Assembly: GCA_034669905.1 (NCBI GenBank)
Contig: JAXMOL010000017.1
Span: 1 to 64,000 of the forward strand
Source: Candidatus Hydrogenedentota bacterium
GTDB lineage: Bacteria > Hydrogenedentota > Hydrogenedentia > Hydrogenedentales > JAEUWI01
DNA: 64,000 nucleotides
Direction of reading: 5' to 3'
Position 1 is the stretch's first letter, and the number at the start of each line of letters is the position of its first letter. Below, piece by piece: positions 14,704 through 52,312 of this stretch. The notes beneath the pieces were generated by a model. The model made no database searches and had not been told where the DNA came from. It was given only the letters and a program-made list of their open reading frames with translations. A program made the position numbers and the translations under genes.

Positions 14704-15687
14704 ATGGCCGACATTCTCAGCCAGGACGAAGTCGATCTACTTCTGGGTGCCGTCTCAGAAGGCGACATCGGCGAGGCCGAACAGGGTGCGCAGTCCGAAC
14801 AGGATGTGAGCCTGTCGCCCTACGATTTCCGCCGGCCCGAGCGCGTTTCCAAAGAGCAGCTCAAGGGGCTCCAGAGCCTCTTTGAAGCCTTTTCCCGGGA
14901 AGTCAGTATCATCTTCCCCCCGTTTCTGCGCACAGTCGTCCGTGTGGACCTTACTTCCATCGATCAGTTGACCTACGACGAGTTCATCCTTTCGGTGGCA
15001 CGGCCCACGGCCCTGTCTATCATCGACATGGCCCCCCTGGAAGGGACGGCGGTCATAGAAATGAGCCCTTCGATGGTTTTTCCCATCGTCGACCGGGTGC
15101 TCGGCGGAAAAGGCATGACCCTGCCGGAACCCCGCGAATTGACCGAGATTGAGAACCGGATCATCCAGCGTATTGTGATGATGATTCTGGACAGTCTCCG
15201 CCGTTCCTGGGAACAACTCATCGAGTTCCGCCTGAGCGTTCTCCAACAGGAGAGCGATCCCCTGATCGTTCAGATCGTGGCCGGCAGTGAAATGGTCATT
15301 CTCGTCGGCTATGAAGTGCATATCGGGGAAACGGTGGGCACGATGAATTTCTGTATCCCCCTGCTGGTCCTCAATCCCATCCTCGATCTGATCTCCCAGC
15401 AGGCCCACTTCTCCCGTCGGATGAGTGATGATGTGGCAGAAATGACCCGGAACGCGATCAAGACACAGCTTCTGCGCAGCCGGATACCCGTGGATGCCAT
15501 ACTGGGCCGTGCCCGGGTTTCGGTCAGCGATGTGGCCACCCTTTCCGTGGGCGATGTGATCCAATTGGACAGTTCCCCCCATTCCCCCTTGCTGGTTGAG
15601 GTGGGTGGGCGTCCCAAGTTTCATGCCTCGCCGGGCCGCCGCCGCGAAAACAGCGCCGTACAACTGTTAGACTTTTACCGGGAGTAA
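14704..15687 (+). CDS. fliM: flagellar motor switch protein FliM
   Basis: N-terminal ILSQDEVDLLL, YDFRRPERVSKEQL, DQLTYDEFI, RELTEIE, C-terminal SPOA domain. Confidence 0.96.
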   Translation: MADILSQDEVDLLLGAVSEGDIGEAEQGAQSEQDVSLSPYDFRRPERVSKEQLKGLQSLFEAFSREVSIIFPPFLRTVVRVDLTSIDQLTYDEFILSVARPTALSIIDMAPLEGTAVIEMSPSMVFPIVDRVLGGKGMTLPEPRELTEIENRIIQRIVMMILDSLRRSWEQLIEFRLSVLQQESDPLIVQIVAGSEMVILVGYEVHIGETVGTMNFCIPLLVLNPILDLISQQAHFSRRMSDDVAEMTRNAIKTQLLRSRIPVDAILGRARVSVSDVATLSVGDVIQLDSSPHSPLLVEVGGRPKFHASPGRRRENSAVQLLDFYRE

Positions 15688-15697: not shown

Positions 15698-16645
15698 ATG
15701 AATCCGATCGCTGCTAACATCGTGGGAACGGGCCTGCTCAAGGGCGCCTTTGACGTCCTTGACGCCATGCTGAGTTGTTCCTTCCAATTCGAACTCGCTG
15801 AGGGAGAAGCCATTACAGCCGATGGCCTTGCCCTGCGGCTGTCGGAGTTCCCGGTCACCTTGCAGGCCACCATTCAAGGGGATTTGGGCGCTGTGGCGCT
15901 GCTACTCAACGTCCACACCGCCGCCCAGGTGGCGGCGCTGATTCAAGAGCAGGAATTCACGGCCGCGGAGGCCCTCAGCGATGATGATCGTTCCATGCTC
16001 AAGGAAATCGCTGACCCGGCACTCGGAGGCGGGGTCACCCACCTGCTGGAACAATTCGGACGCGATGCCGCCCCCCTGGAAAATGTTGAACTGGCGGACA
16101 CGGGCGCGGATCACGGCACGGCCCTGATGGAACTGCTCGGAGCGGACGGAAGTCTGGTCCCCTTCACCTTTACCAACAACGCCGACATATCCGGTGCCGG
16201 GGTGATTCTCTTCAGCCACCCCTTAGAAAGTCTGGTTCCCGAAGAGCAGCTGGTTGCGCCCAAATCCGGGCTGGCCACCGAGGCGGAATTAAGTCCCGAT
16301 GAAATGAACGACATTCTCAGCGGTTTTGGTGGCGAGATGGCCCCGGCAGACGATGACTACCGGGGCGGCACTCGGGCAGCCGCGCCCGAAAACCTGGACA
16401 TGGTCCTGGACATCGGGCTCGTGGCCACCGCGCGGTTAGGCCGGGTGGAAATGCCGATATCAGAGATCCTCAATCTTGGTCCGGGGTCGATTGTGGAGGT
16501 TGCCCACCTGGTGGATGAGCCGGTGGACCTCCTTGTAAATGGAAAACTTATCGCACGGGGCGACGTGGTCGTTGTAGACGAGAAGTTTGGCCTTCGCATC
16601 ACGGAGATCATCAGTACCCGTGCGCGTATAGAGAGTTTGCGTTGA
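15698..16645 (+). CDS. fliY: FliY-like C-ring protein (degenerate CheC-like N-domain plus FliN domain)
   Basis: C-terminal NLDMVLDI...LVNGKLIARGDVVVVDEKFGLRITEI; about 230-aa N-terminal extension; follows fliM. Confidence 0.75.
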   Translation: MNPIAANIVGTGLLKGAFDVLDAMLSCSFQFELAEGEAITADGLALRLSEFPVTLQATIQGDLGAVALLLNVHTAAQVAALIQEQEFTAAEALSDDDRSMLKEIADPALGGGVTHLLEQFGRDAAPLENVELADTGADHGTALMELLGADGSLVPFTFTNNADISGAGVILFSHPLESLVPEEQLVAPKSGLATEAELSPDEMNDILSGFGGEMAPADDDYRGGTRAAAPENLDMVLDIGLVATARLGRVEMPISEILNLGPGSIVEVAHLVDEPVDLLVNGKLIARGDVVVVDEKFGLRITEIISTRARIESLR

Positions 16646-17400
16646 CAGAAGAAGACGAAAAAGAGTACTGGCGCCTCTTTAAAGAGGATGGCAAATCCAC
16701 AGCCCGAGACCAGCTCATCCTGCATCACATGCGTATCGTGAAGTATATTGCGGGACGTATGGCCATCCACGTGCCCAGCAATGTGGAGATGGATGATCTG
16801 GTAGGTTGGGGATGCATCGGCCTCATGGATGCGGTGGAAAAATATGATCACACCCAGGAGATCAAGTTTTCCACCTACGCCTCGATCCGAATTCGCGGCG
16901 CCATTATCGATCAGATTCGGTCCCTCGATTGGGCGCCCCGCTCGCTCCGCACTATGGCGCGCAAGGTCGGTGCTGCCCGCGAAAAGCTCCGTCATGCGGA
17001 AGGACGCGAACCCTCTACGGATGCCATCGCCGACGAAGTCGGCACGACTCCGGAACATGTGGAAGAGACCATGGCCCAATTGCAGACGGCCCAGGTCCTT
17101 TCACTGGATGACTACATCCCCTCTGAAGACAGCGGAGAAACCCGCAAGGTGGAGATGATTGGCTCCAACAGCGCGCCCCACCCGGCCCAGGCGGCCGAAA
17201 ATCAGGAGCGCAAGGAGCTGTTGGTGCAGGCCATCCTTAATTTGCCCGATCAGCAGCAGAAAGTGTTAAACTTATATTACTATGAAGAGTTGACGCTCAA
17301 AGAGATTGGGCTCGTGCTCAGTGTGTCCGAATCTCGCATTTGCCAGATTCACAGCGCGGCCATGAAAAAATTGCGAAAGGCGGTCAACGAAAACGCGTAA
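16642..17400 (+). CDS. fliA: flagellar sigma factor sigma28 (FliA/WhiG)
   Basis: KFSTYASIRIRGAIIDQIRSLDWAPRS, LYYYEELTLKEIG, SESRICQIHS; TTG start overlaps the upstream stop. Confidence 0.95.
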   Translation: MTEEDEKEYWRLFKEDGKSTARDQLILHHMRIVKYIAGRMAIHVPSNVEMDDLVGWGCIGLMDAVEKYDHTQEIKFSTYASIRIRGAIIDQIRSLDWAPRSLRTMARKVGAAREKLRHAEGREPSTDAIADEVGTTPEHVEETMAQLQTAQVLSLDDYIPSEDSGETRKVEMIGSNSAPHPAQAAENQERKELLVQAILNLPDQQQKVLNLYYYEELTLKEIGLVLSVSESRICQIHSAAMKKLRKAVNENA

Positions 17401-17423
17401 ATCGCCTGCGCCGGGAAGGTGTC

Positions 17424-17768
17424 ATGCCCCAACCCATTGACCCTCAGACGGAATTAGGACGGGCCTCCGCTGCCGAACGGATCCAGCAGATTGCTGACCG
17501 GACGTCGCTGGCGGCCCAGGCGCGGGTCGCTTCGGAGTCGGCCAGTGGGCAACGGGCCGCCGAAACGCAGGTACAACACACCTCCCCGAAAAACGACGAA
17601 GTTGATCGGGAGCTTCGCCGACGCAATCCTTTTGTAGGAAAACGTCGCAAACGGGAACAAGGCAGCGGTCAGGGCAAGAATCAGCGCTCCATGCAGTTTT
17701 ACAATGCATCGGAAAAGGAAGTCCTCGCCGACGATCCGCAGGCCCACGACTTTGACGTAGAAATCTAA
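17424..17768 (+). CDS. hypothetical protein in flagellar operon
   Basis: Co-directional ORF after fliA with GGAAGG RBS; low-complexity sequence ending in HDFDVEI. Confidence 0.65.
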   Translation: MPQPIDPQTELGRASAAERIQQIADRTSLAAQARVASESASGQRAAETQVQHTSPKNDEVDRELRRRNPFVGKRRKREQGSGQGKNQRSMQFYNASEKEVLADDPQAHDFDVEI

Positions 17769-17809
17769 TCCCATGCGGTATTACGGCTACAGATTAACCC
17801 CCCTGAAGG

Positions 17810-19054
17810 TTGGAGGAGCGGGCCATGCTTGACACGATTGCCCAGGCCCTCGGCAACCCGGTGGCACTCCTTTTCTTCGCCATCGCCCTGGCGTTCCTCG
17901 CGATCGCCCTGGCGCTGGTCGTCGTACTGCACCAACGGGAGAAGAAAGCAGACCTCCGCCTGAAACAGGCCCGCGCCGACATTACGGACATGACGATATT
18001 GTTTCAGACGATGCGGGATATTATCGGGCAACAGAAGAAACTGGCAAAAGAATTCAATGTCGAATTAGAACACAAGATGGGGCAGGTTAAGCACATCCTC
18101 AATCAGGGCATGGAGAAAAACAAGCAGCTCTACGAGAAACAACTGCGAATCGCCCAAGAGCTTGAAGAGGCCCAGGCGCAAATCGACGGCATCTTTCGCC
18201 AAATGGCCCGCACGGGCGACGGCGCAGGTTTCTCCAGTCTGCCCGCTGAAGCCCCCCGTCACCGGTCCACCGCGCCCTTGAGCGAACCCCGGCGACGGGA
18301 GGATGTACTTCCGACGCGGTCGGAAACGCCTGCCCCCTCCTCCGTCACGCCCCCGAAACCGGCACCACGGCCGACGTCGCCTATCGATTCACTGCGTGCC
18401 GCACCGCGCACAGAAACACCGCTCAAGAAGCCGGCTCCCGAACGTCCCTCCAGTGCCCCGGCAAACGCCATCCAGTCGAACGGGGCACCGATCGGGAAGA
18501 GCATTCTGGACACGGTTCGGCCCGCGCCGCGCCCCAGCGCGCCCAAAACGCCCGCACCGGAAGCGACCAAGGAAGCGGACAAGCTGGAAGATACGGGTGT
18601 GACCAAGTCGTCCTTTACTTCGTGGGTCGCCGAAGACTTCAGCGCGCCCGCTCCCCCCAAAAAAGAAGCCCGCGAAGTTCACGCGCCTGGGAACGCAGCC
18701 CCCACCCCTCCCCGAGAGACGCCGCGCGCACCCCGGGAGGAAGAGGAGCCTGCACCGAAGAACGGCGACGCCGCGCGGGAAGCCTTTCGCGCCTTGTTGA
18801 ACATCCCATCGGAAGCCCCAACATCCCGTGGGGGGCTCGATCTGCCGGGCCAAATGGCTTCCATGGCCGACCTGAGTCCCACGGATGAATCGCAGGATTT
18901 CGCGCAAGACCCGGCCAACATGCAGCAACGGGTCTTGGAATATAGTGATGCGGGCATGACGGTCGCCGAAGTTTCCCGCGAGTTGGGCATTGGAAAAGGG
19001 GAGGTGCGCCTCATGCTCAGCCTCGCCAAGCAGGGCGCGTCGCCGAATGGCTGA
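17810..19054 (+). CDS. SwrB/YlxL-like (DUF6115-type) membrane protein with coiled coil, Pro-rich linker and C-terminal HTH
   Basis: N-terminal TM, coiled coil, long P/A/S/T linker, GMTVAEVSRELGIGKGEVRLMLSL; downstream of sigma28 as for Bacillus ylxL; start may be ATG 17825. Confidence 0.7.
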   Translation: MEERAMLDTIAQALGNPVALLFFAIALAFLAIALALVVVLHQREKKADLRLKQARADITDMTILFQTMRDIIGQQKKLAKEFNVELEHKMGQVKHILNQGMEKNKQLYEKQLRIAQELEEAQAQIDGIFRQMARTGDGAGFSSLPAEAPRHRSTAPLSEPRRREDVLPTRSETPAPSSVTPPKPAPRPTSPIDSLRAAPRTETPLKKPAPERPSSAPANAIQSNGAPIGKSILDTVRPAPRPSAPKTPAPEATKEADKLEDTGVTKSSFTSWVAEDFSAPAPPKKEAREVHAPGNAAPTPPRETPRAPREEEEPAPKNGDAAREAFRALLNIPSEAPTSRGGLDLPGQMASMADLSPTDESQDFAQDPANMQQRVLEYSDAGMTVAEVSRELGIGKGEVRLMLSLAKQGASPNG

Positions 19055-27848: not shown

Positions 27849-30800
27849 ATGAGCGACGAAGAAAAACAACGTCCATCCAGTCTGGACGAGGAAATGCTGA
27901 AGGCCCTGGAAGCGGCTGAGGCAGGCCTTCCGTCCCCCTTGCTGGATGATGGTTTTCTTGTCGATACGGATTTTCTCGAGGATAACTCCCCACTCGTCCG
28001 CCCGGACGGCGAGGCACCCATCGCCGCCCAGACGCCCCTGGCACGTCCCGTGCCACCGCTGCCACGCCCCCGACCGGAAACGCCGTCACGCCGTACCACG
28101 CAGACGCCGTCGACTCCCCCGACCAGTGGGCCGTTGGAAGAACTGGCCTCGGTGCCCGCCGAAACGACTCCCGATGATACGGACTATGTCTCCGGAACGG
28201 ACGATACCCTTACCGAAGAGGAACTCGCGGCACTCGTCGCACAGCGAAAGTCCGAAAAATCCGATTTCGACCCCGAGCTCCCTTTGTCACAGGAAGATCT
28301 CGACGCGCTTATCAATGGGATAGGGCATGAGGGGGATGAACATGGCGAGGACCAGGAGACTTCCACTGCGACGCCGGAAGAAGTGGAGGCACCGGACAGC
28401 GCCCCGCTGATTCCTCACGATGACTTGGGCACCGAATCTGGCGCGGAAACCGAACCTTCCGATACTCCTGCCGAAGAGACTCCCATGGCGCAAGACGAGC
28501 TCGACGCCCTGCTGGCGGGTACCGGAGCTGCAGAGGCGACCGACACACCCGACACGGCTCCCGAAGAAGCCCCCATGGCGGAAGCAGACCTCGACGCCCT
28601 CCTGGCAGGTACGGGAGCTGCGGAGGCGACCGACACCCCCGACACCGAGGCCAACGAGGCCCCCATGGCGGAAGCAGACCTCGATGCGCTCCTGGCAGGT
28701 ACGGGAGCTGCGGAGGCGACCGACACTGAGGCCGAAGAGGCCCCCATGGCGGAAGCAGACCTTGACGCCCTCCTGGCGGGTACGGGAGCTGCGGAGGCGA
28801 CCGACACACCCGACACCGAGGCCGAAGAGGCCCCCATGTCGGAAGCAGACCTTGACGCCCTCCTGGCGGGTACGGGAGCTGCGGAGGCGACCGACACACC
28901 CGACACTGAGGCCGAAGAGGCCCCCATGTCGGAAGCAGACCTTGACGCCCTCCTGGCGGGTACGGGAGCTGCGGAGGCGACCGACACACCCGACACCCCA
29001 GGCAAAGAGGCCCCCGACCTCGACGCGCTCCTGGCGGACGCCGGCGCTGCAGCGGAAAGCGACACGTCCGAAGGGGGCAGTGGCGCCATGTCGCAGGAAG
29101 ATTTGGATGCCCTCCTCGCGACGGCAGCAGAGGAATCTGAAGACGGCGCCTCCCAATCAGGTGACGACGACATTTCCGGCCACACCGATGAGGGCACCCC
29201 TACGTCAGCGACGGCCGATGGCGAAGCGGCATTGGATGAAACGAATCTTGACGCCGTATTGGGCGGGCCCCGTGAGGAGCAGGTGCTGGATGGGTCCCAG
29301 CTTGACGCCCCCGTCATCCCCGAAGAGGATTCCCCCGAGGTCTCGTTGAGCCAGTCAAGCATCGACTCGCTCATGGCCGATCTGGACAGCTCTGGCGCGC
29401 TGGACGGCCTCCCTGCAAGCCCCGAGGCGGAAAGCCCGCCGGACGATGAAGCGGAAGAAGAAGAGATTGGCGACATTTCGCAGGACATGATCGATTCGCT
29501 CATCGCGAGTGCCCAGCAGGAAGCCACCGATGAACGCAGTGCCGCGTCGAAGAGCGAGATCGGATCGGAGAATCTTGCGGCAGCGGCGGCCTCGGAATCG
29601 GGTTCCGAAAGCCTGTCTCAGAGTGATCTGGACAAACTCATCGAGGCCTCCAAGAACGGAGATACGGGCCCCGCGCCCGCGTCACCTGCTCCCCTTCAAG
29701 AGGGCGATGGCGCCTCCTCTGCCGACACCGCGCTTTCGCCCGAAGCGGGTTCCGCTCGAGGAACAGGTCGGGGCAAACGATTCCGCAAGCAGTCGCCCCT
29801 GGTCCCCTTCGTCCAGGAAAACGCCGTCCGCCTCGCTGCGTGCCTGACCATGGGCACGCTGATCGCCCTGGGTACTGGCGGCATCCTTACCCTGAACCGG
29901 GAGCACCGTCCCGATGCCGGTATGGAGCGGGCGTTGGACTCCCTCGAGATCGCGCTGACCCGGGCACGCGACAAGATGGCCTCCGGAGATTACGTGGGCG
30001 TTGTGGAAGAATTGGACGAGCCCATCGCGGCCGCCTATCCGGGACAACTGCGAAGTGACGCCCTCTTCGTTCGTCTGGAAGCCCAGTTTCGGGCGTTTCG
30101 GGGTGAATGGGGCACGCCGGAGTTCGACCAGATGACGGCGAATATCGACGATGTGCTGAAGGAAGTACCCTCTCACCCGCGGATTCCCGAGGCGCTGTAT
30201 TGGAAGGCAAAGCTCTTTACCGCGGATCAGCCCATCCTCGCCTTGGATATCTACAAGAATATTTTCGAACAGTACGCGGATGCACCCGAGCGGGATCGCA
30301 TGTTGATTGAGGCGTCCCAACTCGCCCTGGAGCAAGAGGACCCGCTGACCGCGGCCATCTACGCACAAAACCTGCTTTCCAACTATCCCGCTTCTCCCTG
30401 GGCGGGGGAGGCCAAATTGGCTATTGGGGATGCCAACGTCAAAGCAGGCAACTACAGCGACGCCCGCACCATGTTTATCCGGGTGGCCCAAAGTTCTCCT
30501 GACTCTGCACTGGCTGCTAAAGCCTTTGTCCGTCTTGGCCGTCTGGCCTATGAATCCGGCCAGTATAAGAATGCCGAGATGCACCTGAAGAATCAGATCG
30601 AGACATCGACCCACCTGGAAGGCAATGACGAGGTGTACTTGCTCCTCGCCCAGACCTACCGCGCCTCCGGCCAGTTAGAAAATGCGCGGGATACCCTGAC
30701 CGATTTGTTGACCTTCTTTGAAGACAGCCCCCTCCGACCACAGGCCTTTATCGAGAACGCGCAGGTCCTAGAGGCCCTGGGAGAGCGGGAGCGCGCCATT

Positions 30801-31928
30801 AAGACCGCGCAGCGGGCCACCCTGGAGTATCCCAACAACCCCGATGTGCTGAAGAACAACGGCGAGCTTCAGGGGCTGGACGGCAACCCCCTGGCGGCCG
30901 CCATCGCTTTCGTGGCGGCCGACAAGGCGGGCGCCGCCGACCCGAGTCTCTTGCTGAATGCCGCTCGCTACTATCGGACCGCGAACATGCCCACCGAGGC
31001 CACCCGCACCTATCAACGTCTGAAGACCTTGTACGCGGGCTCCCCGGAAGCACTCTCGGGCAGCATCGAAGCGGCCCGGCTGCGCTACGAGCAGGGCGGC
31101 ACGGAAGGCGCCCTGGACGATCTGACGTCGCTCCTGGCGGCCACCCGGGGCACGCGCCACCAATTGCCCACCCTGGAGGCCATCCAATCGATTTACCGGG
31201 ACCTGGGACTGCCCGACCATATCAGGACCACGGCCCGCGATATTGTGTCCGTCGCGACCGAGCCAGAGACCCTGGCCCAGGCCGCCATCGACCTCATCGA
31301 CAATGGTGATTTAGAAAACGCGCAGGCCGCCATTGGAAAGCTGGATCTCAATCGGCTGCGTACCCGAACCGCCTTCTCCCTGCTGATGAAGGAAGGCGAA
31401 GCCCTCCTTTCCATCGCGCCCCAGCGGGGACTGGAAAAGATGGAACAGGCCTACTTCAATTATCCAGAAGCCCGTACCCGCCCCTCGGACCAAAAGCTGC
31501 TGCGGACCTATCTTGACACAGGGCGTGCCGCCGCCGCGCGCCGCATGGTCATGGATCTCAAGGCCCATGTGGAGACCGCCCCCATCGACACGCCCTATCT
31601 GGTGGACGCGGCCATCGCGTGGGGAGACTTTCTCTACGACAAAGAAGACTATCGGACGGCGGTTTTCGCCTTCTCGATTGCCGAAGACTCCACGTCCAAC
31701 AGCAAACTCCCGGTCACGGGACTCCGCTCCGATCCCGAGTGGGCCCGCTACCAGCGCGCCAACGCCCTGCTACAACTGGCGGATTACGAAGGTTGCCTCA
31801 GCCTTTACGAATCCATTGCAGCCTCCGATTCGCCCTGGGCCCAGGAGGCGGCTGTCAAGGCCAACCTGGCCCGGCTCGAACAACGGCAACGGGGTGTACC
31901 CGTTGCCCAGAATAATCCGGCAGGTTAA
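27849..31928 (+). CDS. large single-pass membrane protein: acidic N-terminal region with repeated LSQxxLDALL helices, TM, periplasmic TPR array
   Basis: About 650-aa acidic low-complexity region, basic patch RGKRFRKQ, TM (LAACLTMGTLIALGTGGILTL), multiple TPRs (EALYWKAK, EAKLAIGD, KAFVRLGRL, EVYLLLAQTY). Confidence 0.9.
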   Translation: MSDEEKQRPSSLDEEMLKALEAAEAGLPSPLLDDGFLVDTDFLEDNSPLVRPDGEAPIAAQTPLARPVPPLPRPRPETPSRRTTQTPSTPPTSGPLEELASVPAETTPDDTDYVSGTDDTLTEEELAALVAQRKSEKSDFDPELPLSQEDLDALINGIGHEGDEHGEDQETSTATPEEVEAPDSAPLIPHDDLGTESGAETEPSDTPAEETPMAQDELDALLAGTGAAEATDTPDTAPEEAPMAEADLDALLAGTGAAEATDTPDTEANEAPMAEADLDALLAGTGAAEATDTEAEEAPMAEADLDALLAGTGAAEATDTPDTEAEEAPMSEADLDALLAGTGAAEATDTPDTEAEEAPMSEADLDALLAGTGAAEATDTPDTPGKEAPDLDALLADAGAAAESDTSEGGSGAMSQEDLDALLATAAEESEDGASQSGDDDISGHTDEGTPTSATADGEAALDETNLDAVLGGPREEQVLDGSQLDAPVIPEEDSPEVSLSQSSIDSLMADLDSSGALDGLPASPEAESPPDDEAEEEEIGDISQDMIDSLIASAQQEATDERSAASKSEIGSENLAAAAASESGSESLSQSDLDKLIEASKNGDTGPAPASPAPLQEGDGASSADTALSPEAGSARGTGRGKRFRKQSPLVPFVQENAVRLAACLTMGTLIALGTGGILTLNREHRPDAGMERALDSLEIALTRARDKMASGDYVGVVEELDEPIAAAYPGQLRSDALFVRLEAQFRAFRGEWGTPEFDQMTANIDDVLKEVPSHPRIPEALYWKAKLFTADQPILALDIYKNIFEQYADAPERDRMLIEASQLALEQEDPLTAAIYAQNLLSNYPASPWAGEAKLAIGDANVKAGNYSDARTMFIRVAQSSPDSALAAKAFVRLGRLAYESGQYKNAEMHLKNQIETSTHLEGNDEVYLLLAQTYRASGQLENARDTLTDLLTFFEDSPLRPQAFIENAQVLEALGERERAIKTAQRATLEYPNNPDVLKNNGELQGLDGNPLAAAIAFVAADKAGAADPSLLLNAARYYRTANMPTEATRTYQRLKTLYAGSPEALSGSIEAARLRYEQGGTEGALDDLTSLLAATRGTRHQLPTLEAIQSIYRDLGLPDHIRTTARDIVSVATEPETLAQAAIDLIDNGDLENAQAAIGKLDLNRLRTRTAFSLLMKEGEALLSIAPQRGLEKMEQAYFNYPEARTRPSDQKLLRTYLDTGRAAAARRMVMDLKAHVETAPIDTPYLVDAAIAWGDFLYDKEDYRTAVFAFSIAEDSTSNSKLPVTGLRSDPEWARYQRANALLQLADYEGCLSLYESIAASDSPWAQEAAVKANLARLEQRQRGVPVAQNNPAG
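28482..29060 (+). repeat. coding tandem repeat with a 90-bp (30-aa) unit: six units plus a truncated seventh
   Basis: Units start at 28482, 28572, 28662, 28743 (preceding unit 81 bp), 28833, 28923, with a partial unit at 29013; encodes PM(A/S)EADLDALLAGTGAAEATDTPDTEAEEA. Confidence 0.95.
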
Positions 31929-31930
31929 CT

Positions 31931-32368
31931 ATGCCCACCTACCCGCTCGCTTACCGTATCGAAGACTTCCTACGACGTCAGATCGCGTGGGCCGACCAGG
32001 TGCTGACTGAGCTGGATGCCGTCCCGGATGCATCCGCCGAGTCCCTCGAATCACTCGTCTTGCACCAGCAACAGCGACAAAAGGAGGCCCGAGATTTCGC
32101 CCGGGAGTACAACGGCCTCGCAGCGGAATGGCGACGCGATGAGGAGACGACCGACGAAGAACGGGCTCGAATTCGCGTCCAGTCGGAACGGGCCCAGGGG
32201 CTGATGACCACCCTTCAATCCCGCTTTGACACCGTGCAAGAACGTGCGGACCAACAAGCCGCCCGACTGCGCCAGGAAGTGAATGACTTGCGCCGTGGCG
32301 GCCGCTCTGTCACTATTTACCAGACGGAGCTCTTGACCGCTCCGGAATTCGTCGACAAGAAGGCCTGA
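31931..32368 (+). CDS. FlgN/FliT-like helical flagellar chaperone (putative)
   Basis: All-helical 145 aa, C-terminal FVDKKA typical of FlgN-like proteins; flagellar regulatory operon context. Confidence 0.55.
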   Translation: MPTYPLAYRIEDFLRRQIAWADQVLTELDAVPDASAESLESLVLHQQQRQKEARDFAREYNGLAAEWRRDEETTDEERARIRVQSERAQGLMTTLQSRFDTVQERADQQAARLRQEVNDLRRGGRSVTIYQTELLTAPEFVDKKA

Positions 32369-32441: not shown

Positions 32442-33590
32442 ATGGAAGCACCAAAAACGGACGTCGAGGCCCTGGCACAGGCCTTTGATCTCTTTACCAA
32501 GACAACCGCCAGCATGGAGGAGGCCTATCGGCATCTCCAGCAACGGGTCACCGATCTGGATCAGGAACTGGCCACCAAGAATCTGCAGTTGGCCCTCACG
32601 ACCGATTACCTTTCCAACCTGCTCGAAAGCATTTCTGACGGCGTGATCGCCGTGGACACCCAGGAAACCGTGACCCGATTCAACCGGGCCGCCAGTCTGG
32701 TGCTCGGTTTTTCCGCCGAGGAAATCGTCGGACAGTCTTTTTCCAAGGTCTTCGGACGTCCCTTTGCCGCCACGACAACGCCGGGCACCACGGAGTTAGA
32801 GGCCAAAAGCGGGCGGGCCGTGCCGGTAAGCGAACGGGATTCGGTTATTGCCGACCGCGATGGTAACCGCCTGGGCTACGTAAAGACGTTTCAGGATCTG
32901 AGTGAACTGAGTGCCCTGCGGGAACAGGTGCGACAGATTGACCGTCTGGCGGCCATCGGCGAGATGGCGGCCACGGTGGCCCATGAAATCCGCAATCCGC
33001 TGGGCGGCATTCGGGGTTTTGCCACCTTCCTTTCCCAGGACACCCCCGAAGACGATCCGCGGCACCGACTGGTCCAGAAAATTCTCGTGGGTACGGCCAG
33101 CCTCGAGAAGGTGGTCAACGGATTGCTGGAGTACACGCGGCCGGTAGAACTGAAAATGACGCCCACCTCCTGCGCGAGCATTGCCCAGGCTGCCATGCGC
33201 TATATGGAATATGACCCCAACAAGGTGACGATTTTCACGGAAATCGCGCCCGACTTGCGAATCCTGGCCGACGGCGATAAGATCCGGCAAGTGTTGATGA
33301 ATATCCTGGTCAACGCGGTGCAGAGTATTGAGTCGAAAGGAGAGATTCGCCTCACGGCCGTTGCCGGTGAAAACGTCGTTCACCTGTCGATACAAGACAC
33401 GGGCTCCGGCATGGATGAAGAAGCCCTGAAACAGATCTTCTCTCCTTTTTTTACCACCAAAGAAAAAGGCACGGGGCTGGGCATGGCCGTATCGCAGAAA
33501 ATCGTCGAAGGACACGGTGGCGTGCTCTCAGCCCATAGCGTGGCGGGTGAAGGCACCCGTATCGCGATCCAACTACCCCGCGCGGAGTAA
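32442..33590 (+). CDS. PAS sensor histidine kinase, FleS/FlrB-like
   Basis: N-terminal LAQAFDLF..LQQRV coil, PAS (ESISDGVIAVD), AHEIRNPLGGI, PFFTTKEKGTGLG; no TM. Confidence 0.92.
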   Translation: MEAPKTDVEALAQAFDLFTKTTASMEEAYRHLQQRVTDLDQELATKNLQLALTTDYLSNLLESISDGVIAVDTQETVTRFNRAASLVLGFSAEEIVGQSFSKVFGRPFAATTTPGTTELEAKSGRAVPVSERDSVIADRDGNRLGYVKTFQDLSELSALREQVRQIDRLAAIGEMAATVAHEIRNPLGGIRGFATFLSQDTPEDDPRHRLVQKILVGTASLEKVVNGLLEYTRPVELKMTPTSCASIAQAAMRYMEYDPNKVTIFTEIAPDLRILADGDKIRQVLMNILVNAVQSIESKGEIRLTAVAGENVVHLSIQDTGSGMDEEALKQIFSPFFTTKEKGTGLGMAVSQKIVEGHGGVLSAHSVAGEGTRIAIQLPRAE

Positions 33591-33598: not shown

Positions 33599-34984
33599 AT
33601 GACCATTTCTCCCTCGAAACACCGTATTCTCGTCGTGGACGATGAATTGCTTATGCGAGAGTATGTGGAAGAGGCCCTCCTGCGCGCAGGCTATCTGGTC
33701 GACACCGCCACGAATGGGGCCGATGGGCTGGCCCTTTTCGAAACCCATCAGCACGATGTGGTGGTTACCGATTTGAAGATGACCCCCATGGACGGACTCG
33801 CCGTGCTGCAGGGGGTCCTGGAGAAGCACCCCGAGACCCGCGTGATTGTCATGACGGCCTACGGCACCATCGAAACTGCGGTGCGTGCGCTGAAAGGGGG
33901 GGCCACCGACTATATTCTAAAACCCTTCGCGCCCGACGTATTGGAGCTGGCCGTCACCCGGGCCCTGGAATTGGCCCGACTGACGCAAGAAAACCGCTAC
34001 TTACGGGAAGAGCTGAATACACGCTATGACAGCGGCGCCATGGTCGGCTACAGCCCGGCGATGGAGCAGGTCAAGCAGGATATTGCCAAGGTGGTGGATA
34101 GTCGCGCGACGGTGCTCATCCGTGGTGCGAGCGGTACCGGTAAGGAGCTGGTTGCCCGGGCCATTCATCATGGCGGTTCCCGCACCAACAAGCCCTTCAT
34201 CAAGGTAAACTGTGCGGCCCTCTCGGCGGGCATTCTGGAGAGCGAATTATTCGGACACGAGAAAGGGGCCTTTACGGGTGCCCATGATCGCAAGATTGGC
34301 CGCTTCGAACTCGCGGACGGTGGCACCCTGCTGCTCGACGAAGTGAGTGAGATCAACATTGAGCTCCAGGCCAAGTTACTCCGTGCCCTGCAGGAACGGG
34401 AAATCGAGCGGGTCGGTGGCACGCAGACCATCCCCGTGGATACGCGCATCGTGGCCACCTCCAACCGCGATCTGGAGGAAGCCGTTGCCGAGGGGACCTT
34501 TCGGGAAGACCTGTTTTTCCGGCTCAACGTCATCACGATTCAGCTGCCACCGCTCCGGGAGCGGCGGGACGATATCGCGCGCCTGGCGGAGCATTTCTTC
34601 AACGTGTTCAACCGCGAGAATGGCCGCAATCTACGTGGGATTTCCAAAGCCGCTCAAGAGGCCCTGGTGGCGTACAGTTGGCCAGGAAACGTGCGGGAAC
34701 TACAGAACGCAATCGAACGCGCGGTCGTGTTGGCCAGCGGCAAGGAACTCACGCCAGAGGATTTTCAGTTCAATACGGCGGCCCTGCTGAAATCGGAAGC
34801 CCCTCCGGGGCTCTCGGCAGGCACAACGGTCTCGGACATGGAACGGCAACTCATTTTTACGACGCTCGAGCACTGCAGTCAGAATCGCACCCGGGCTTCT
34901 GAACTTCTCGGGATCAGCGTCCGTACCCTGCGCAATAAGCTGAAGGAATACCAGGAAGCGGGTATTGAAGTACCTTCGGCCTGA
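33599..34984 (+). CDS. sigma54-dependent response regulator, FleR/FlrC-like
   Basis: REC (VVDDE, TDLKM), GASGTGKE, GAFTGA, LLLDEV, WPGNVREL, HTH LGISVRTLRNKL. Confidence 0.95.
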   Translation: MTISPSKHRILVVDDELLMREYVEEALLRAGYLVDTATNGADGLALFETHQHDVVVTDLKMTPMDGLAVLQGVLEKHPETRVIVMTAYGTIETAVRALKGGATDYILKPFAPDVLELAVTRALELARLTQENRYLREELNTRYDSGAMVGYSPAMEQVKQDIAKVVDSRATVLIRGASGTGKELVARAIHHGGSRTNKPFIKVNCAALSAGILESELFGHEKGAFTGAHDRKIGRFELADGGTLLLDEVSEINIELQAKLLRALQEREIERVGGTQTIPVDTRIVATSNRDLEEAVAEGTFREDLFFRLNVITIQLPPLRERRDDIARLAEHFFNVFNRENGRNLRGISKAAQEALVAYSWPGNVRELQNAIERAVVLASGKELTPEDFQFNTAALLKSEAPPGLSAGTTVSDMERQLIFTTLEHCSQNRTRASELLGISVRTLRNKLKEYQEAGIEVPSA

Positions 34985-45443: not shown

Positions 45444-45842
45444 ATGACCCCATACGCTGGTGTAGATACGACAACCCTCCTGGTGCAGGCCATGAAAGTG
45501 CGGGAACAGAACCACCGCTATCTGGCCAACAACATCGCCAATGTGGATACGCCCCACTTTACGCCCAGTGAAATCGACTTCCAGAAGACGCTGCATACCA
45601 TGATTGAAGGTCGGGGCGCCGTCGCCCTCCGCACGACGCGACCCCGCCACTTTGATCATTCCACCTATCGTACCGAATTCGATCGTCTTGCAATTTTATC
45701 GAAGAATGACTACAATAAAGTTGACATAGATGATCAAATGAGTAAATTGTCGCAGAACACGGGTGACTACTCGACGTACGCGCGACTGCTCAGCAAGAAA
45801 TTTGAAATGACCAAGTCCATGTTGAACAGCCTGGCACGGTAG
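45444..45842 (+). CDS. flgB: flagellar basal body rod protein FlgB
   Basis: LANNIANVDTPHF, NDYNKVDIDDQM. Confidence 0.93.
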   Translation: MTPYAGVDTTTLLVQAMKVREQNHRYLANNIANVDTPHFTPSEIDFQKTLHTMIEGRGAVALRTTRPRHFDHSTYRTEFDRLAILSKNDYNKVDIDDQMSKLSQNTGDYSTYARLLSKKFEMTKSMLNSLAR

Positions 45843-45851
45843 GAGTAAGGG

Positions 45852-46274
45852 ATGAACCTCGATCGAATCTCCGCCCGTGACATCGCCGTCAGTGGTCTGA
45901 AGGCCCAGCGGGTCCGCATGAACATCATCGCGAACAACATCGCGAATGTGGAAACGACCCGCACCCCGGAAGGGGGCGCCTTTCGCCGACAGATGGTGGT
46001 ATTCCGGGGCGAGGAAATCGGCAACGGCCCGAACCCCGAAAAGTTGGGGGTGATGGTAAAACGGGTTATCCGAGACCCCTCCCCCCTCCGCCAGGTATTC
46101 GATCCCCAACATCCCGATGCCAATGAAGACGGCATTGTGGAATACCCCAACGTCAACATGGCAGTAGAAATGGTAAATCTTATCTCCGCGCAGCGGGCCT
46201 ATGAGGCCAATATCGCGGTCATTACCTCCGGGCGCCAGATGAAACAGCGCGCCATGGAAATATTGCAGCAATAG
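45852..46274 (+). CDS. flgC: flagellar basal body rod protein FlgC
   Basis: ANNIANVETTR, DPQHPDANEDG.VEYPNVN, AQRAYEAN. Confidence 0.96.
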   Translation: MNLDRISARDIAVSGLKAQRVRMNIIANNIANVETTRTPEGGAFRRQMVVFRGEEIGNGPNPEKLGVMVKRVIRDPSPLRQVFDPQHPDANEDGIVEYPNVNMAVEMVNLISAQRAYEANIAVITSGRQMKQRAMEILQQ

Positions 46275-46300
46275 TAGAAAGGTTTAATCAGGATAGCCCC

Positions 46301-46624
46301 GTGATTATCGATCCCCTGAAAGTCCCCGGCGCACGTCTCCAACCCCCGGAGATCAGTGCCAAGCAGATGCGACCAGCCCAGCCCCGCCCGACGGGCCTGG
46401 AAGACCGGTCGTTTCAGGACGTTCTGGCGGATGCCATCACGGAGGTTAAGCACCTGCAAACCGAAGCCGACACCACCATTAAACAGTTGGTAGCCGGTGA
46501 GATAAAGGATGTTTCCGAAGCCATGGTCGCTGTGGAGAAGGCCGATGTCTCCTTCCAGACCATGATGACCGTGCGCAATAAGGTCATGACGGCCTACGAA
46601 GAAATCATGCGCATGCAGATCTAG
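46301..46624 (+). CDS. fliE: flagellar hook-basal body protein FliE
   Basis: SFQDVL, AMVAVEKA, VRNKVMTAYEEIMRMQI. Confidence 0.95.
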   Translation: MIIDPLKVPGARLQPPEISAKQMRPAQPRPTGLEDRSFQDVLADAITEVKHLQTEADTTIKQLVAGEIKDVSEAMVAVEKADVSFQTMMTVRNKVMTAYEEIMRMQI

Positions 46625-46693
46625 TGGCTCGGAAGGCACCAGATTAATCGACACCGTAAGAAAAGTGGTTCCCGTAACGGTTCCTCTTTTCTT

Positions 46694-46708
46694 TGGTATA
46701 TACGAAGC
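46694..46708 (+). promoter_or_regulatory. possible second sigma54 promoter upstream of fliF
   Basis: TGGTATA-TACG-AAGC (GG-N10-GC spacing, imperfect -12). Confidence 0.35.
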
Positions 46709-47129
46709 ATCCCCGCCACAGGACGTGATATCGGGATGGACAGGATGTCCAGCAAGATGCTTTCAGGGCTCGGGAGCAAGCTCTCGGGTACTGATGCGCG
46801 GAGGTCATAGTTGAATCTACGCTACACAGCGTGAAAGTACCGGTCATCTTGGGACATGTCCGGTGGCTACCGCTGTGCAGTCTCCAGCCGTGTGGCCCTG
46901 AGCGGGAAGTCCACACGACCGCTGGTTCCCTGACGTATCTGTATACTTTTTCCGTACCGATACCAGGCGCAAGAGACACTGCGACGGGTGGGCTGCACCC
47001 GGCGTGGGACATATTGTGAATGGGTGTCCTGGAGCACCCCCTCCCCACGTGGGAAGGGGCATCCCCCGGACGATATCGGATACCGACTGCGCGGATTGAT
47101 GCCCGCAGGCGGCAGGTTAGGGTAGACAC

Positions 47130-48722
47130 GTGAATTTGGCCGACTTAATCGATTTTCTCCGTCAGCAGGGGCGCGCGGTTAAAGAGAATTGGAGTCAACT
47201 CCCCGCAGGCCCCCGGGTCATGATTGTGGGTATTGGCTTGCTCGTCGCGGCGGCCATTGCTGCAGTCAGTATTACAGGGGGCGAAACCCGCTACATCACC
47301 CTCACCGACAACCTCACCGCCGATCAGATCGGGGAGGCTATTGCCCTGTTGGACGCCAAGGGCGTCAAGTATCGGGTCGACGAAAACCGCCGGGCCATCA
47401 CGGTCCTCCCCAAAGACAAGGGCGCCATGCTCCTCGAATTGGAGCGCAACAAACTTCCCGTCGGCCGCAGCACCCCCGCGGGCTATGAAAAACTCTTCGA
47501 CAATCCCGACCTGATGTCCAATCAGTGGCTTAATGATCTTAAGTTCATGCGGGCCATCCAGGGCGAACTCCAGAAACAGCTGGATGATTTCGACTTCGTC
47601 GATTACTCTAATGTGATTATCCGCGAGGCCAAGCAAGAGCTCTTCGTCGATGAGCAGATCCCTTCGGAAGCAGTGGTCAGCCTCTCCGTCAACCGCCCGG
47701 TCACCAAAGAAGAGACCAAGCTCATTGTCAGCATGGTGAGCCACGCCGGTGGCGCCAACCTTCATTCGGGTAATATTGTCGTTTCCACGACCGACGGCAC
47801 CTCGCTCCATCTGCCCGCCGAATCCGAATTTGCCTCGGTCGCCTCTTCCAAACTGGAACTCCAGGACGAAGTGGAACGGCGCATTGAAAACAAGATTAAC
47901 AGCGGTCTGAATCGCATGGGCGTCCACGGCACGGTGATGGTGAGCGCCGACATCAATTTTGATCAGAAAGAAGTGACGGAAGACCTGCTTGGCGAGCCCC
48001 AGCCGGTAAGCGAATGGACGCAGAAACACGAGCTCAACTCTACCGAGCGCCTCCCCGAAGGCGCACCGGGCGCCCTGCAGAATGTGCCTGAAGCGGCTGC
48101 CGGCCCCGGCGGCACCACGACCACCGAAAACACCAACGACGAATTGGTCAATTACGACTTCAGCCGCACCACGACCCGCACCCGAACAGAGCCGGGCGAT
48201 GTGGTAAGATATAAGATAGCGATGGTCGTCCATGGCGACCAAACGGAAGACGTAGAAGGCGAAGATGGCACCCCGCAGAAGGTGTACGCGGGCATTTCTG
48301 ACGATCTGAAAGCCGCCCTTACGGCGCTGGCCCAGAGTGCGGTCAGTATTGAGGGCGTCGAAACGGAAGTAAACATTCTGGACCACGATTACGTCACAGC
48401 CGGGCTCTTGCCGGGCAATGGCGGTCACGATCCCGAGAGTGAAGTCATGGGTGGCCTGTCATTACTGGATAGAATGCCGACACTGGCCATTCAATTTGTG
48501 TTGATATTGATTGGTTTCTTCTTCATCCGATACTTCCTGAAGAATTCCATCATTGTCCCAGGAGACGAGCACGTAGAAGAAGAAGTCAAGGAAATTCCGG
48601 CCGCAACGCTCGAAGACATGCGTCGCCAGGAGGTGTCCGCAGAAATCTCTCAACTTTCCATGGACGATCCCGAAGCGGTGGCCGCCCTGTTGCGCAGCTG
48701 GATGATGACCGACGAGGATTAG
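47130..48722 (+). CDS. fliF: flagellar M-ring protein FliF
   Basis: TM1, GYEKLFD, RAIQGEL, VSADINFD, PGALQN, VNYDFSRT, TM2, DPEAVAALLRSWM. Confidence 0.93.
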   Translation: MNLADLIDFLRQQGRAVKENWSQLPAGPRVMIVGIGLLVAAAIAAVSITGGETRYITLTDNLTADQIGEAIALLDAKGVKYRVDENRRAITVLPKDKGAMLLELERNKLPVGRSTPAGYEKLFDNPDLMSNQWLNDLKFMRAIQGELQKQLDDFDFVDYSNVIIREAKQELFVDEQIPSEAVVSLSVNRPVTKEETKLIVSMVSHAGGANLHSGNIVVSTTDGTSLHLPAESEFASVASSKLELQDEVERRIENKINSGLNRMGVHGTVMVSADINFDQKEVTEDLLGEPQPVSEWTQKHELNSTERLPEGAPGALQNVPEAAAGPGGTTTTENTNDELVNYDFSRTTTRTRTEPGDVVRYKIAMVVHGDQTEDVEGEDGTPQKVYAGISDDLKAALTALAQSAVSIEGVETEVNILDHDYVTAGLLPGNGGHDPESEVMGGLSLLDRMPTLAIQFVLILIGFFFIRYFLKNSIIVPGDEHVEEEVKEIPAATLEDMRRQEVSAEISQLSMDDPEAVAALLRSWMMTDED

Positions 48723-48762
48723 TACGACGACTCCGCAAGATAAAACAGCCCTTATCGAAGAC

Positions 48763-49764
48763 ATGGATGGCCGCCGCAAGGCAGCCATTCTGCTTGCGTG
48801 CCTGGGACCTGAAAATGCCAGTCGCGTGATGGGCAGCTTTTCCGACGACGAAATTGACCAGATGACCCTGGACCTCTCTGGGTTGGGGACCGTGGATGCC
48901 AACATAAAATCTGCGGTACTGGACGAGTTTTATGAAATGGCGGTGGCGAAGCGCTTCGTGGCGCAAGGGGGCATCGACTTTGCCAAGGACCTGCTGGAGA
49001 AATCCTTCGGCAGCGAGCGGGCCTTTGAAATCCTGAACCGTCTCCAGAGCAGTCTGCAGGAAGTGCCCTTTCAGTTTCTGAAGAAGGCCGATCCCTCGCA
49101 GATTTCCAGCTTTATCCAGGACGAACACCCTCAGACGATTTCCCTGATTCTGGCCCATATGAACCCGGCCACTTCGTCGATTATCCTCTCCTCCCTCCCC
49201 CAGGATGTGCAATCCGACGTGGTGATTCGAATCGCCACCATGGACCGCACGGCCCCGGAAATTGTGCGTGAGGTGGAGCGGGTACTTGAGCGAAAAATGG
49301 CGGCGGTCTTCAGTCAGGGCTTTACCTTCGCCGGTGGTGTGAAGGACGTGGCCGAAATTCTCAATATGATCGAACGCGCCACGGAAAAAACCATCATGGC
49401 CGACCTCGAAGAGCGGGACCCCGAACTGGCCGACGAGATATCCCGTCTCATGTTTACCTTCGACGACATTATCTTCGTCGACGACGCGGGCATACAGAAG
49501 ACCCTCCGCGAGGTCGAGAGCAAGGATCTCGCCCTGGCCCTCAAGGCATCCAACGAGGAAGTCAAAGACAAAGTGCTCCGCAACATGTCCGAGCGGGCCC
49601 GCGAAATGATCCAGGAAGAAATCGATTTCATGGGGCCAACCCGCATGAAAAACGTGGAAGAAGCCCAACAGAAAATCGTGGCCATTGTCCGCCGTCTGGA
49701 AGAGTCGGGCGACGTGGTCATCTCTGGACGGGGTGGCGGAGATGCGGATGAAATTCTCGTATAG
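48763..49764 (+). CDS. fliG: flagellar motor switch protein FliG
   Basis: KAAILL, GGIDFAK, EHPQTI, MFTFDD, LALALK, NMSERA, MGP; true start may be slightly upstream. Confidence 0.97.
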   Translation: MDGRRKAAILLACLGPENASRVMGSFSDDEIDQMTLDLSGLGTVDANIKSAVLDEFYEMAVAKRFVAQGGIDFAKDLLEKSFGSERAFEILNRLQSSLQEVPFQFLKKADPSQISSFIQDEHPQTISLILAHMNPATSSIILSSLPQDVQSDVVIRIATMDRTAPEIVREVERVLERKMAAVFSQGFTFAGGVKDVAEILNMIERATEKTIMADLEERDPELADEISRLMFTFDDIIFVDDAGIQKTLREVESKDLALALKASNEEVKDKVLRNMSERAREMIQEEIDFMGPTRMKNVEEAQQKIVAIVRRLEESGDVVISGRGGGDADEILV

Positions 49765-49802
49765 CAAGGTCCGCCACGACAGGCAGGGGAGTACTCCGGC
49801 TT

Positions 49803-50501
49803 ATGTCTAGGGTGCTCAAATTTATCCATGCCGAAACCGAAGGGGCCTCCCTCTTCGGCCGCGACCTGCTGGAAGCCTTTCCCGACAAAGAGGAGATGGT
49901 CCCTGCGCTGGAAGCTACGCCGGAAGAGGACCGCGACGGGGAGGCGGCTCCGGTAGATACGGAGCAGTTGCGCCAGGAAGTCCTGGCCGCCGCACGGGAT
50001 GAGGCCGCGCAAAAGGTGCAGGAGGCCTATCAAGAGGGATTGGCCCGCGGCACGGAAGCGGGGAAAGAGGCCTTTGAAGCCACCTTAGCGGAATGTGCCA
50101 GCGCACTCACGGCCGCCGGGGAGCAGATCGAGGCGACGCATCGGGCCTTCCTGGAGAGCCTGGAACCCCAGGTGATCGCGTTGGTCAAAGACATCGCCTC
50201 GAAGGTCATCGCGGTAGAACTGCAGACGAACGATGCCATTTTGCAGCGCACGGTGGAGCGAACGCTCTCAGAGCTGGTCGGTGAACACGCCGTAACGCTG
50301 TTGCTCAACCCCCAGGATCTGGAAGCCATTCGACACCACGAAGTACAGCTTCTGGAGTCCTTCCCCCGTATCAGCACCTTTTCCCTGGAAGCCGATGAGA
50401 GCATCCCCCCCGGAGGCTGCATTGCCCGCACGGATACGATGGATGTGGATGGGCGATTGGATACCTTGCTATCCCACGTACTCGACAGCCTCACGGAGTA
50501 A
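49803..50501 (+). CDS. fliH: flagellar assembly protein FliH
   Basis: AYQEGLARG repeats, LNPQDL, IPPGGCI, DGRLDT. Confidence 0.92.
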   Translation: MSRVLKFIHAETEGASLFGRDLLEAFPDKEEMVPALEATPEEDRDGEAAPVDTEQLRQEVLAAARDEAAQKVQEAYQEGLARGTEAGKEAFEATLAECASALTAAGEQIEATHRAFLESLEPQVIALVKDIASKVIAVELQTNDAILQRTVERTLSELVGEHAVTLLLNPQDLEAIRHHEVQLLESFPRISTFSLEADESIPPGGCIARTDTMDVDGRLDTLLSHVLDSLTE

Positions 50502-50509
50502 CGGCGCTC

Positions 50510-51823: not shown

Positions 51824-51826
51824 GTC

Positions 51827-52294
51827 ATGCGCCACCCCGATCGCTACCGCGTGCTGCTGCGGGTTCGCAAGCAGGAAGAAGACATCAAGGCCCAGGCCCT
51901 GGCCCGGAGTCGTCAGGCGGTCCAACAATCGGAACGGGAGCGCACTTCGCTGGAGTTAACCCGCCAGGCCGCCCTGGAGCACGCCGGTCAGAGTCTCCTG
52001 ACGGAATTTGACGCTGCGGAGGTGCGGAGCTACTATCAGTATGAGCGCCATCTGGCCGCCCTTCGCGATCAGAAAGATGCGGAAATCCGGTCCCTACAGG
52101 CCGACGAAGCGGAAAAGCGCTCCATCCTCGAAGCGTCTACGAAAGCACGACAAATCGCAGAAAAACTACACCACCGTCGGCGGGATGCCTACCAGCAGTA
52201 TCTCCATCGCGAAGCGCAGAAACAGCTCGACGAAACGGCGACCCTGTATGCCGCCCGAGACATACACGGTGCTTCGACGAACGACGAGCCATAA
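51827..52294 (+). CDS. fliJ: flagellar export protein FliJ
   Basis: Coiled-coil protein after fliI; VLLRVRK, EKL, EAQKQLDE. Confidence 0.85.
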   Translation: MRHPDRYRVLLRVRKQEEDIKAQALARSRQAVQQSERERTSLELTRQAALEHAGQSLLTEFDAAEVRSYYQYERHLAALRDQKDAEIRSLQADEAEKRSILEASTKARQIAEKLHHRRRDAYQQYLHREAQKQLDETATLYAARDIHGASTNDEP

Positions 52295-52312
52295 TCGCAG
52301 GGGAATATTGAT

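Follow-up and report, generated by a model that had tools for sequence, protein, structure and literature searches.

CheY-P docks at single peptides on FliM, FliY and CheZ, and CheZ tethers it through a similar C-terminal helix. The locus described here raises the question of what a membrane protein that carries more than a dozen FliM-like peptides would bind, and to what end. The window, by which we mean the whole stretch of 64,000 nucleotides of Candidatus Hydrogenedentota contig JAXMOL010000017.1 that was analysed, contains the gene for this protein, which we refer to as the scaffold:

27849..31928, + strand: scaffold gene (1359 aa), from the ORF call and Pfam; acidic disordered arm, one transmembrane (TM) helix and TPR domain
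28209..29642, + strand: FliM-N/EIDAL-like motif array, 13 scored copies and a truncated one, from a regular expression and the family matrix
28470..29015, + strand: 90-bp (30-aa) tandem array, 6.2 copies with 87% matches, from repeat detection
29559..29588, + strand: second conserved motif [VI]GSEN[LV]AAA, single-copy and independent of chemotaxis status
29769..29888, + strand: basic patch (residues 641-647) and TM helix (about 662-680), predicted N-in
29889..31925, + strand: TPR region, predicted periplasmic, with Pfam TPR families downstream of the TM helix

Composition, hydropathy and Pfam agree with the layout proposed in an earlier note on this DNA, namely an acidic low-complexity N-terminal part followed by a basic patch, one TM helix and a TPR array. 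Residues 1-640 contain 25.6% D+E and 3.0% K+R, and the top hydrophobic segment of the protein is 662-680, with a Kyte-Doolittle value of 1.79. Residues 1-664 gave zero Pfam matches at E up to 1, and the arms of five orthologs gave no credible match to Pfam. The N-in topology that the note had also proposed is backed by the family, in which K/R is richer before the TM helix than after it in 118 of 133 proteins; by the positive-inside rule, the acidic arm would be cytoplasmic and the TPR part periplasmic. The TPR region is conserved order-wide, with a mean column identity of 46% among 43 sequences, and sequence searches with this part against PDB, NCBIfam and Atlas returned generic TPR matches only.

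Scored with a matrix derived from the family, the window protein has 13 motif copies of at least 6 bits, starting at residues 121, 146, 213, 243, 273, 300, 330, 360, 414, 462, 500, 543 and 589, and eight copies of at least 12 bits, compared with a mean of 0.09 and a maximum of 2 copies (at least 6 bits) in 300 shuffles of residues 1-664. Together with a truncated PDLDALL copy at residue 389, this bears out the earlier count of about 14 motifs, and those named at the time all lie within residues 121-598. When run on the genome's complete set of 62,049 six-frame ORFs, the motif regular expression matched 12 times in the scaffold ORF and twice elsewhere, one of the two being the N-terminus of FliM itself. 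Six or seven motif copies are supplied by the tandem array and are therefore not independent, and in five of the tandem-array copies E replaces the Q that is conserved in the family.

The scaffold is a member of a Ca. Hydrogenedentota family whose proteins combine an acidic, predicted cytoplasmic arm with a single TM helix and a TPR domain. Matrix matches in the family number 567, versus 2 in shuffles, and are present in 115 of 132 proteins, with 0 to 24 scored copies per protein on arms of about 140 to 1030 aa. The consensus is L[SD]Q[DASE][DE][LI]DAL[LI], with frequencies of L65% [S41/D32] Q90% x [D31/E26] [L53/I37] D86% A58% L86% [L47/I29]. Both the variable arm length and the recent tandem duplication, which inflates copy number, would suit repeats that act as generic amphipathic stickers, or that arose by slippage within a spacer arm, and that have no receiver-domain ligand. 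We consider this improbable, because conservation extends beyond the hydrophobic anchor to the L, S/D, Q and D positions (when motifs are anchored on hydrophobic positions only, Q still reaches 65%, which is 15 times background, and D reaches 70%) and because motif quality and number follow chemotaxis status, as set out below, whereas length and acidity do not.

The window also encodes a protein that bears a peptide of this type:

14704..15687, + strand: FliM, from Pfam; N-terminal peptide at 14716-14745

The likeness of the array motifs to this N-terminus, noted earlier by eye, is reflected in a score of 18.3 bits for the FliM-N of the window genome on the array matrix, and a search of PDB with the motif profile placed the FliM of 8umd at rank 1, but at an E of only 0.23. 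Over ten residues, the array shares the L, S, Q, hydrophobic, D, A, L and L positions with the N-terminal EIDAL peptide of FliM, which is found also on FliY and some FliN. FliM D12, to which the conserved D of the motif corresponds, is described as pairing with CheY K119 (10.1101/781468). The CheY of relatives retains Y106 and K119, but has E where E. coli has K91, which is described as another FliM-N contact. Judged from sequence, the array motif thus resembles the FliM-N/EIDAL-type consensus, including the D that would pair with CheY K119. The two differ in that the scaffold has many copies on a disordered membrane-protein arm, whereas FliM has a single copy on a C-ring subunit, and in that position 5 of the array is D or E about equally; binding of a receiver domain by the array is predicted.

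Orthologs were found in 87 of the 109 genomes of the phylum, and the link to the flagellum anticipated by the earlier note is clear from their presence in 52 of 54 FliM-positive versus 0 of 7 FliM-negative genomes; FliM-positive genomes without a detected ortholog are G034, G056, G075 and G097. Its proposal that the gene sits in an operon with a flagellar kinase/activator pair likewise stands, the kinase being part of the locus around the ortholog in 46 of 51 genomes. In the window the neighbouring genes, and the flagellar genes further on, are:

31931..32368, + strand: 145-aa helical protein, weakly FlgN-like; position conserved, Atlas lead at 0.86
32442..33590, + strand: PAS histidine kinase in FlgS/FlrB-type position, from Pfam
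33599..34984, + strand: REC-sigma54-HTH activator in FlgR/FlrC-type position, from Pfam, NCBIfam and locus context
45444-60648: flagellar genes, named by eye

One ortholog of the 145-aa protein matches PF05130 at E 0.001, below the cut-off. In G061 and G062 the activator is followed by flgB/flgC-like genes, and the scaffold gene lies four genes upstream of these (both by eye); in the window genome it is about 13 kb from the flagellar clusters of the window. The scaffold therefore co-travels with the flagellum and resides in a conserved flagellar operon, while the number of its FliM-N-like peptides is variable.

What the array binds can be approached through lineages that have lost chemotaxis, a recurrent event for which the tree allows as many as 19 changes of state. 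We compared 88 orthologs, 28 of them CheY-less and 60 CheY-bearing. Motif density is 0.52 per 100 aa without a chemotaxis CheY versus 1.42 with it, and the median number of copies is 1.5 versus 5. The difference persists in tree-corrected PGLS (whatever the lambda, p lies between 2e-10 and 1.5e-3), in 16 independent pairs (on average 9.5 in the same direction, 0.3 opposite and 6.3 with no difference; median p 0.004) and in a strict set, 14 genomes with neither CheW nor CheY (p 4e-7). Arm length, acid content, TPR root-to-tip distance and the second conserved (EN) motif do not differ between the two groups, and FliM-N is essentially unaltered in the CheY-less lineages. The training set of the scoring matrix was the family itself. 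When motifs are counted without a matrix the effect is weaker, with p in the strict set of 0.012 at the best lambda and 0.13 at the worst, and in the high-quality subset the mean motif score is no longer significant at high lambda. There are exceptions in both directions, as CheY-less G060 and G000 hold 7 and 8 strong copies, and G013, G046, G106, G023 and G045 have a CheY match but 1-2 copies; 7 of the 28 CheY-less genomes are less than 90% complete. Dependence of the array on a cognate CheY holds at the family level after tree correction, not for the window genome alone, and its erosion in lineages without chemotaxis is a new finding. CheY vanishes together with the whole chemotaxis cluster, so that the correlation cannot name the ligand within the cluster.

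FlhG, a MinD-like ATPase, is a second known ligand of the EIDAL peptide, and one that the earlier note omitted; in Shewanella the EIDAL motif is reported to be necessary and sufficient for FlhG binding (10.1101/2022.04.21.489128; PMC12826062). The repeats might be docking sites for FlhG, like those that HubP offers at the pole, and so influence how many flagella are made or where they are placed. FlhF tracks the ortholog in 53 of 61 genomes, the window genome carries flhF-flhG, and a median of 1.5 copies remains even without CheY. FlhG is nevertheless a rather unlikely main ligand, as the array erodes in CheY-less loci although FlhG is kept in 24 of 25; moreover, G062 has FlhG yet zero scored copies, and G061 has zero at 12 bits.

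Joint loss of the whole chemotaxis cluster in array-eroding lineages would equally accommodate another cluster product (CheY2, CheX or CheA) as ligand, or an arm that positions receptor arrays as a polar landmark. The window genome keeps cheY2 plus many motif copies, and the non-chemotaxis CheY-like Cle proteins are described as binding FliM-N too (PMC5677366); that description gives no support to the idea that Caulobacter Cle proteins themselves have a FliM-like peptide. We nevertheless hold this reading to be unlikely, since the K119 equivalent is absent from CheY2 (by eye), reading two of the clusters by eye revealed no ParA/ParC-like gene, and the motif is specifically FliM-N-like. The earlier note had also put forward the REC domain of the co-encoded FleR-like sigma-54 activator, which would link motor assembly to transcription, and the operon with kinase and activator is conserved. 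This is very improbable, as kinase and activator are present in CheY-less G003, G014, G022, G027, G030, G036, G051, G057 and G060, where the array is mostly eroded, and G062 has the pair with zero scored copies.

Because FlhG, FliM-N and the co-encoded sigma-54 regulator all persist where the array erodes, CheY-P is the likeliest candidate ligand at the family level. The earlier proposal of CheY-P thus stands for the family, but not for the window genome, which has lost the cheA/W/Y/R/B core and retains cheY2, a second single-domain receiver. An assembly gap was considered as the cause of the missing genes and rejected, the chemotaxis locus on contig C40 being contiguous and N-free. Given the loss of this core, the array of the window genome is probably a decaying relic, or else serves a residual ligand, with the scaffold part kept. 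CheZ was absent in all five genomes tested.

The proposed arrangement has partial precedents. FlcA, the Borrelia collar protein, and PflB, at the rim of the Campylobacter/Helicobacter proximal disk, are described as flagella-linked proteins that likewise have a single TM helix and, in the periplasm, a long TPR domain. As in the predicted topology of the scaffold, FlcA has a cytoplasmic N-terminal part too, but this is described as a globular domain touching MotA, whereas that of the scaffold is a disordered peptide array. The earlier comparison with PflB, FlcA and FimV holds for the FlcA-like layout, and membership of these families finds no support: the window protein has no match to NCBIfam NF047371 (FlcA), for which one ortholog reaches 23.5 bits versus a cut-off of 300, the TPR profile finds generic TPR chains and no PflB or FlcA chain in PDB at E 1e-5, and the window protein and the arms of five orthologs have no LysM or FimV domain in Pfam. 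TPR scaffolds are poorly conserved in sequence, PflB closes its TPR array with a TM helix and an antiparallel beta-pair, and potential PflA/PflB homologs were taken to be flagellum-linked proteins with more than 3 TPRs within five genes of flagellar genes (PMC11870540). HubP/FimV too is described as having a single TM helix and a long, acidic and unstructured region in the cytoplasm, where imperfect repeats occur in variable number (PMC12918733). Its order is the opposite one, however: the N-terminal LysM domain is periplasmic, and the FimV TPR lies at the cytoplasmic C-terminus. ZomB is described as a single-TM accessory required for CheY-dependent switching; its size is about 30 kDa, its TM helix is N-terminal, and the available description mentions no such repeats. 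A literature search for such a docking array found nothing relevant, most subscription papers being outside its reach. With residues 120-620 as query, 8000 candidates of 747-2379 aa were scored and 19 proteins retrieved, 18 with TPR domains plus P0169, whose similar array suggests a recurring design.

Taken as a whole, we find it slightly more probable than its converse that the scaffold is a bitopic flagellar accessory protein whose arm peptides capture CheY-P beside the C-ring. By analogy with FlcA and PflB, the periplasmic TPR domain would hold the protein at the motor as a stator scaffold, a location that topology and gene context suggest. Each peptide on the disordered cytoplasmic arm may fold onto the FliM-binding face of CheY-P, and many weak sites near the C-ring could together act as a local CheY-P reservoir, which would buffer the signal and hand it to FliM or, alternatively, retain it for the CheX phosphatase.

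It is possible, although we would wager slightly against it, that this is an undescribed class of chemotaxis component: a scaffold anchored at the motor, with as many as about 25 FliM-N mimics on the disordered arm of each chain. If so, one scaffold per stator would give the motor several times the number of CheY-P sites found on the C-ring, the copy number, altered by tandem duplication, would be a dial by which evolution sets switching sensitivity, and the array would decay repeatedly upon loss of chemotaxis. Many flagellated members of the phylum appear to lack the chemotaxis core, and its repeated loss is a natural experiment that separates CheY from FlhG as ligand. A multivalent array on a motor scaffold would then be a spatial buffer between signalling and switching that is absent from models of chemotaxis.

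The array protein is linked to the flagellum and carries a conserved multi-copy motif whose retention depends on the chemotaxis cluster. Its features in the window are:

27849-31928, + strand: array-protein open reading frame, 1359 aa
After the acidic arm, in order: basic patch (residues 641-647), hydrophobic segment (residues 662-680), TPR repeats
29559-29588: single-copy motif [VI]GSEN[LV]AAA, 40-170 residues N-terminal of the TM helix, in 48 of 71 full-length orthologs

Acidic residues make up 25.6% of positions 1-640 and basic residues 3.0%, and every motif listed in the earlier note is found in the protein. Thirteen copies reach at least 6 bits with the family matrix, whereas 300 shuffles yield 0.09 copies on average. 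Among 62,049 six-frame ORFs genome-wide, a motif regular expression matches the array ORF 12 times and has two further hits, one in the FliM N-terminus and one in an unrelated enzyme-like ORF. A single 90-bp tandem array accounts for 6 or 7 of the copies, and in five copies of this tandem array E replaces the family Q. The presence of [VI]GSEN[LV]AAA is independent of chemotaxis status; the motif is a candidate motor-binding site. P0169, a 1000-aa protein without a Pfam domain or obvious TM, has approximately 25 copies of the array motif counted by eye, and therefore the array exists in another architecture too.

The hydrophobic pattern alone, used as an anchor, recovers L (51%), S/D (64%), Q (65%, 15x background) and D (70%) at the FliM-N positions. 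A refined matrix detects 567 copies in 115 of 132 family proteins (median 3, maximum 17) versus 2 in shuffles, and the FliM N-terminus ranks first of 177,635 PDB sequences against a 47-copy profile, with an E of 0.23 that is not significant alone. CheY K119 is reported to pair with FliM D12 (10.1101/781468), and the relatives' chemotaxis-cluster CheY, which aligns with solved CheY proteins, keeps Y106 and K119 and has E at K91. FlhG is reported as a further binder of the FliM-N/EIDAL peptide (10.1101/2022.04.21.489128; PMC12826062), and motif likeness by itself therefore cannot identify the ligand. Elsewhere in the window, FliN (15698-16645, 315 aa) has a long N-terminal part that looks CheC-like by eye and a weak internal EIDAL-like copy (5.7 bits); where a CheC-type E-x-x-N motif would be expected, 30 orthologs have none. 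In the fliM operon, two uncharacterised genes (17340-19054) lie behind a sigma-28-like gene, one with a C-terminal DUF6115 match.

Clear orthologs of the TM and TPR part (E <1e-40) were recovered from 52 of the 61 relatives searched, a figure that includes the genome of the window; matches with E no higher than 1e-30 occur in 87 of the 109 genomes of the phylum. A profile search returned approximately 146 family representatives at 50% identity, and three family members have Ca. Hydrogenedens or Hydrogenedentes as their source. Of the 61 genomes, 54 have FliM, and the ortholog occurs in 52 of these versus none of the seven without FliM, bearing out the flagellar co-occurrence that the earlier note had proposed to check. 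Further exceptions are G075 and G097, with FliM and no ortholog, and G107, with an ortholog and FliM not found. A PAS kinase lies inside the fetched ortholog locus in 46 of 51 genomes. In two outgroup genomes, with genes named by eye, the TPR gene is followed by a small helical gene, the kinase and the sigma-54 activator, and flgB- and flgC-like genes come next. The distant orthologs L162 (G062) and L163 (G061), 25-26% identical and from flagellated genomes without CheW, have the acidic arm, no strong motif copies, and flgB/flgC-like genes four genes downstream. Genome G074 has two near-identical ortholog copies (L130 and L164) on separate contigs, reflecting duplication or contamination (5%).

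The genome of the window, G000, is a flagellated genome with clean loss of the chemotaxis core, whereas its closest relative, G007, retains CheW and CheY. It has flagellins, FlhF and FlhG, and no CheW or MCP domains were found in it (95.7% complete). Its syntenic locus on contig C40 has no counterparts of cheA, cheW, cheX, cheY, cheD, cheR and cheB of the related genome G004, names assigned by eye and from CheW matches. A contiguous, N-free stretch (G000:C40:63818-72694) still carries the genes on either side, together with a cheD-HDOD-cheY2-cheX-like remnant. Therefore the "CheY sponge" suggested by the earlier note could not operate ordinarily in this genome.

Chemotaxis-cluster CheY is found in 62 of 109 genomes. 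We compared 88 ingroup orthologs, 60 with CheY and 28 from CheY-less genomes, of which 7 are <90% complete and 9 have some CheW domain. The comparison leaves out G019, whose arm is not in a single frame, the partial and unfetched G108, the G053 C-terminal piece, the second G074 copy, and outgroups G061 and G062. Scored with a matrix derived from the family itself, the median number of strong copies is 1.5 without CheY and 5 with it; density per 100 aa is 0.52 versus 1.42, both slightly underestimated because arm length was measured from the upstream stop codon. The 37 later-added genomes, taken alone, give 0.30 versus 1.37 (p 3e-5). PGLS on density with the TM and TPR-part tree gives p from 2e-10 to 1.5e-3 across all lambda. 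Of 16 independent pairs on well-supported branches, an average of 9.5 go in the same direction, 0.3 go the opposite way and 6.3 show no difference (median p 0.004), and 15 of 19 sister contrasts chosen by hand are lower. The effect persists in a strict set of 14 genomes at least 90% complete and lacking both CheW and CheY (p 4e-7), with unique copies only, and in the 150 residues adjoining the TM (p 0.009). A matrix-free count gives a weaker effect, with p in the strict set running from 0.012 at the most favourable lambda to 0.13 at the least favourable, and mean motif score in the high-quality subset is not significant at high lambda. G060 and G000 have many copies despite no CheY, and G013, G046, G106, G023 and G045 few despite CheY.

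The two groups do not differ in arm length, acid content, TPR root-to-tip distance or the [VI]GSEN[LV]AAA motif. All 25 CheY-less genomes tested keep FlhF, and FlhG is present at 24 of their 25 loci, one locus being truncated by a contig end. FliM-N is essentially unchanged in every CheY-less genome where readable, and the kinase-activator pair is likewise kept. In one CheY-less genome (G113:C11) the FliM match is split over two frames (L171/L172), a broken gene or assembly error. Given that the whole chemotaxis cluster is lost jointly, CheY is picked by motif likeness and not correlation alone. Copy loss is only partial, which would allow for an additional ligand, for example FlhG.

The N-terminal side of the TM carries more K/R residues than the C-terminal side in 118 of 133 proteins and fewer in 4 (17 of 150 matches dropped as too short), which argues for an N-in topology. 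FlcA, reported to bridge FliL, MotB and MotA, has the same layout (10.64898/2026.10.14.759253), and PflB is a second analogue (PMC12222027; PMC11870540); with these as models, the TPR domain may be a stator scaffold. By the tests runnable here, the array protein is neither FlcA nor HubP/FimV. Its parts are already known; no protein combining them turned up in the portions of the literature searched, which included PMC13277936, PMC12918733, PMC6946799, PMC5677366 and 10.1101/2021.07.06.451403, although Supplementary Table 5 of PMC11870540, on flagellum-linked TPR proteins phyla-wide, might list the family. We lean slightly towards a combined reading in which an N-in protein would scaffold the stator through its TPR domain and bind CheY-P at each motif copy. 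CheZ was found in none of five genomes. The array would then either pass CheY-P to FliM or retain it for the phosphatase CheX.
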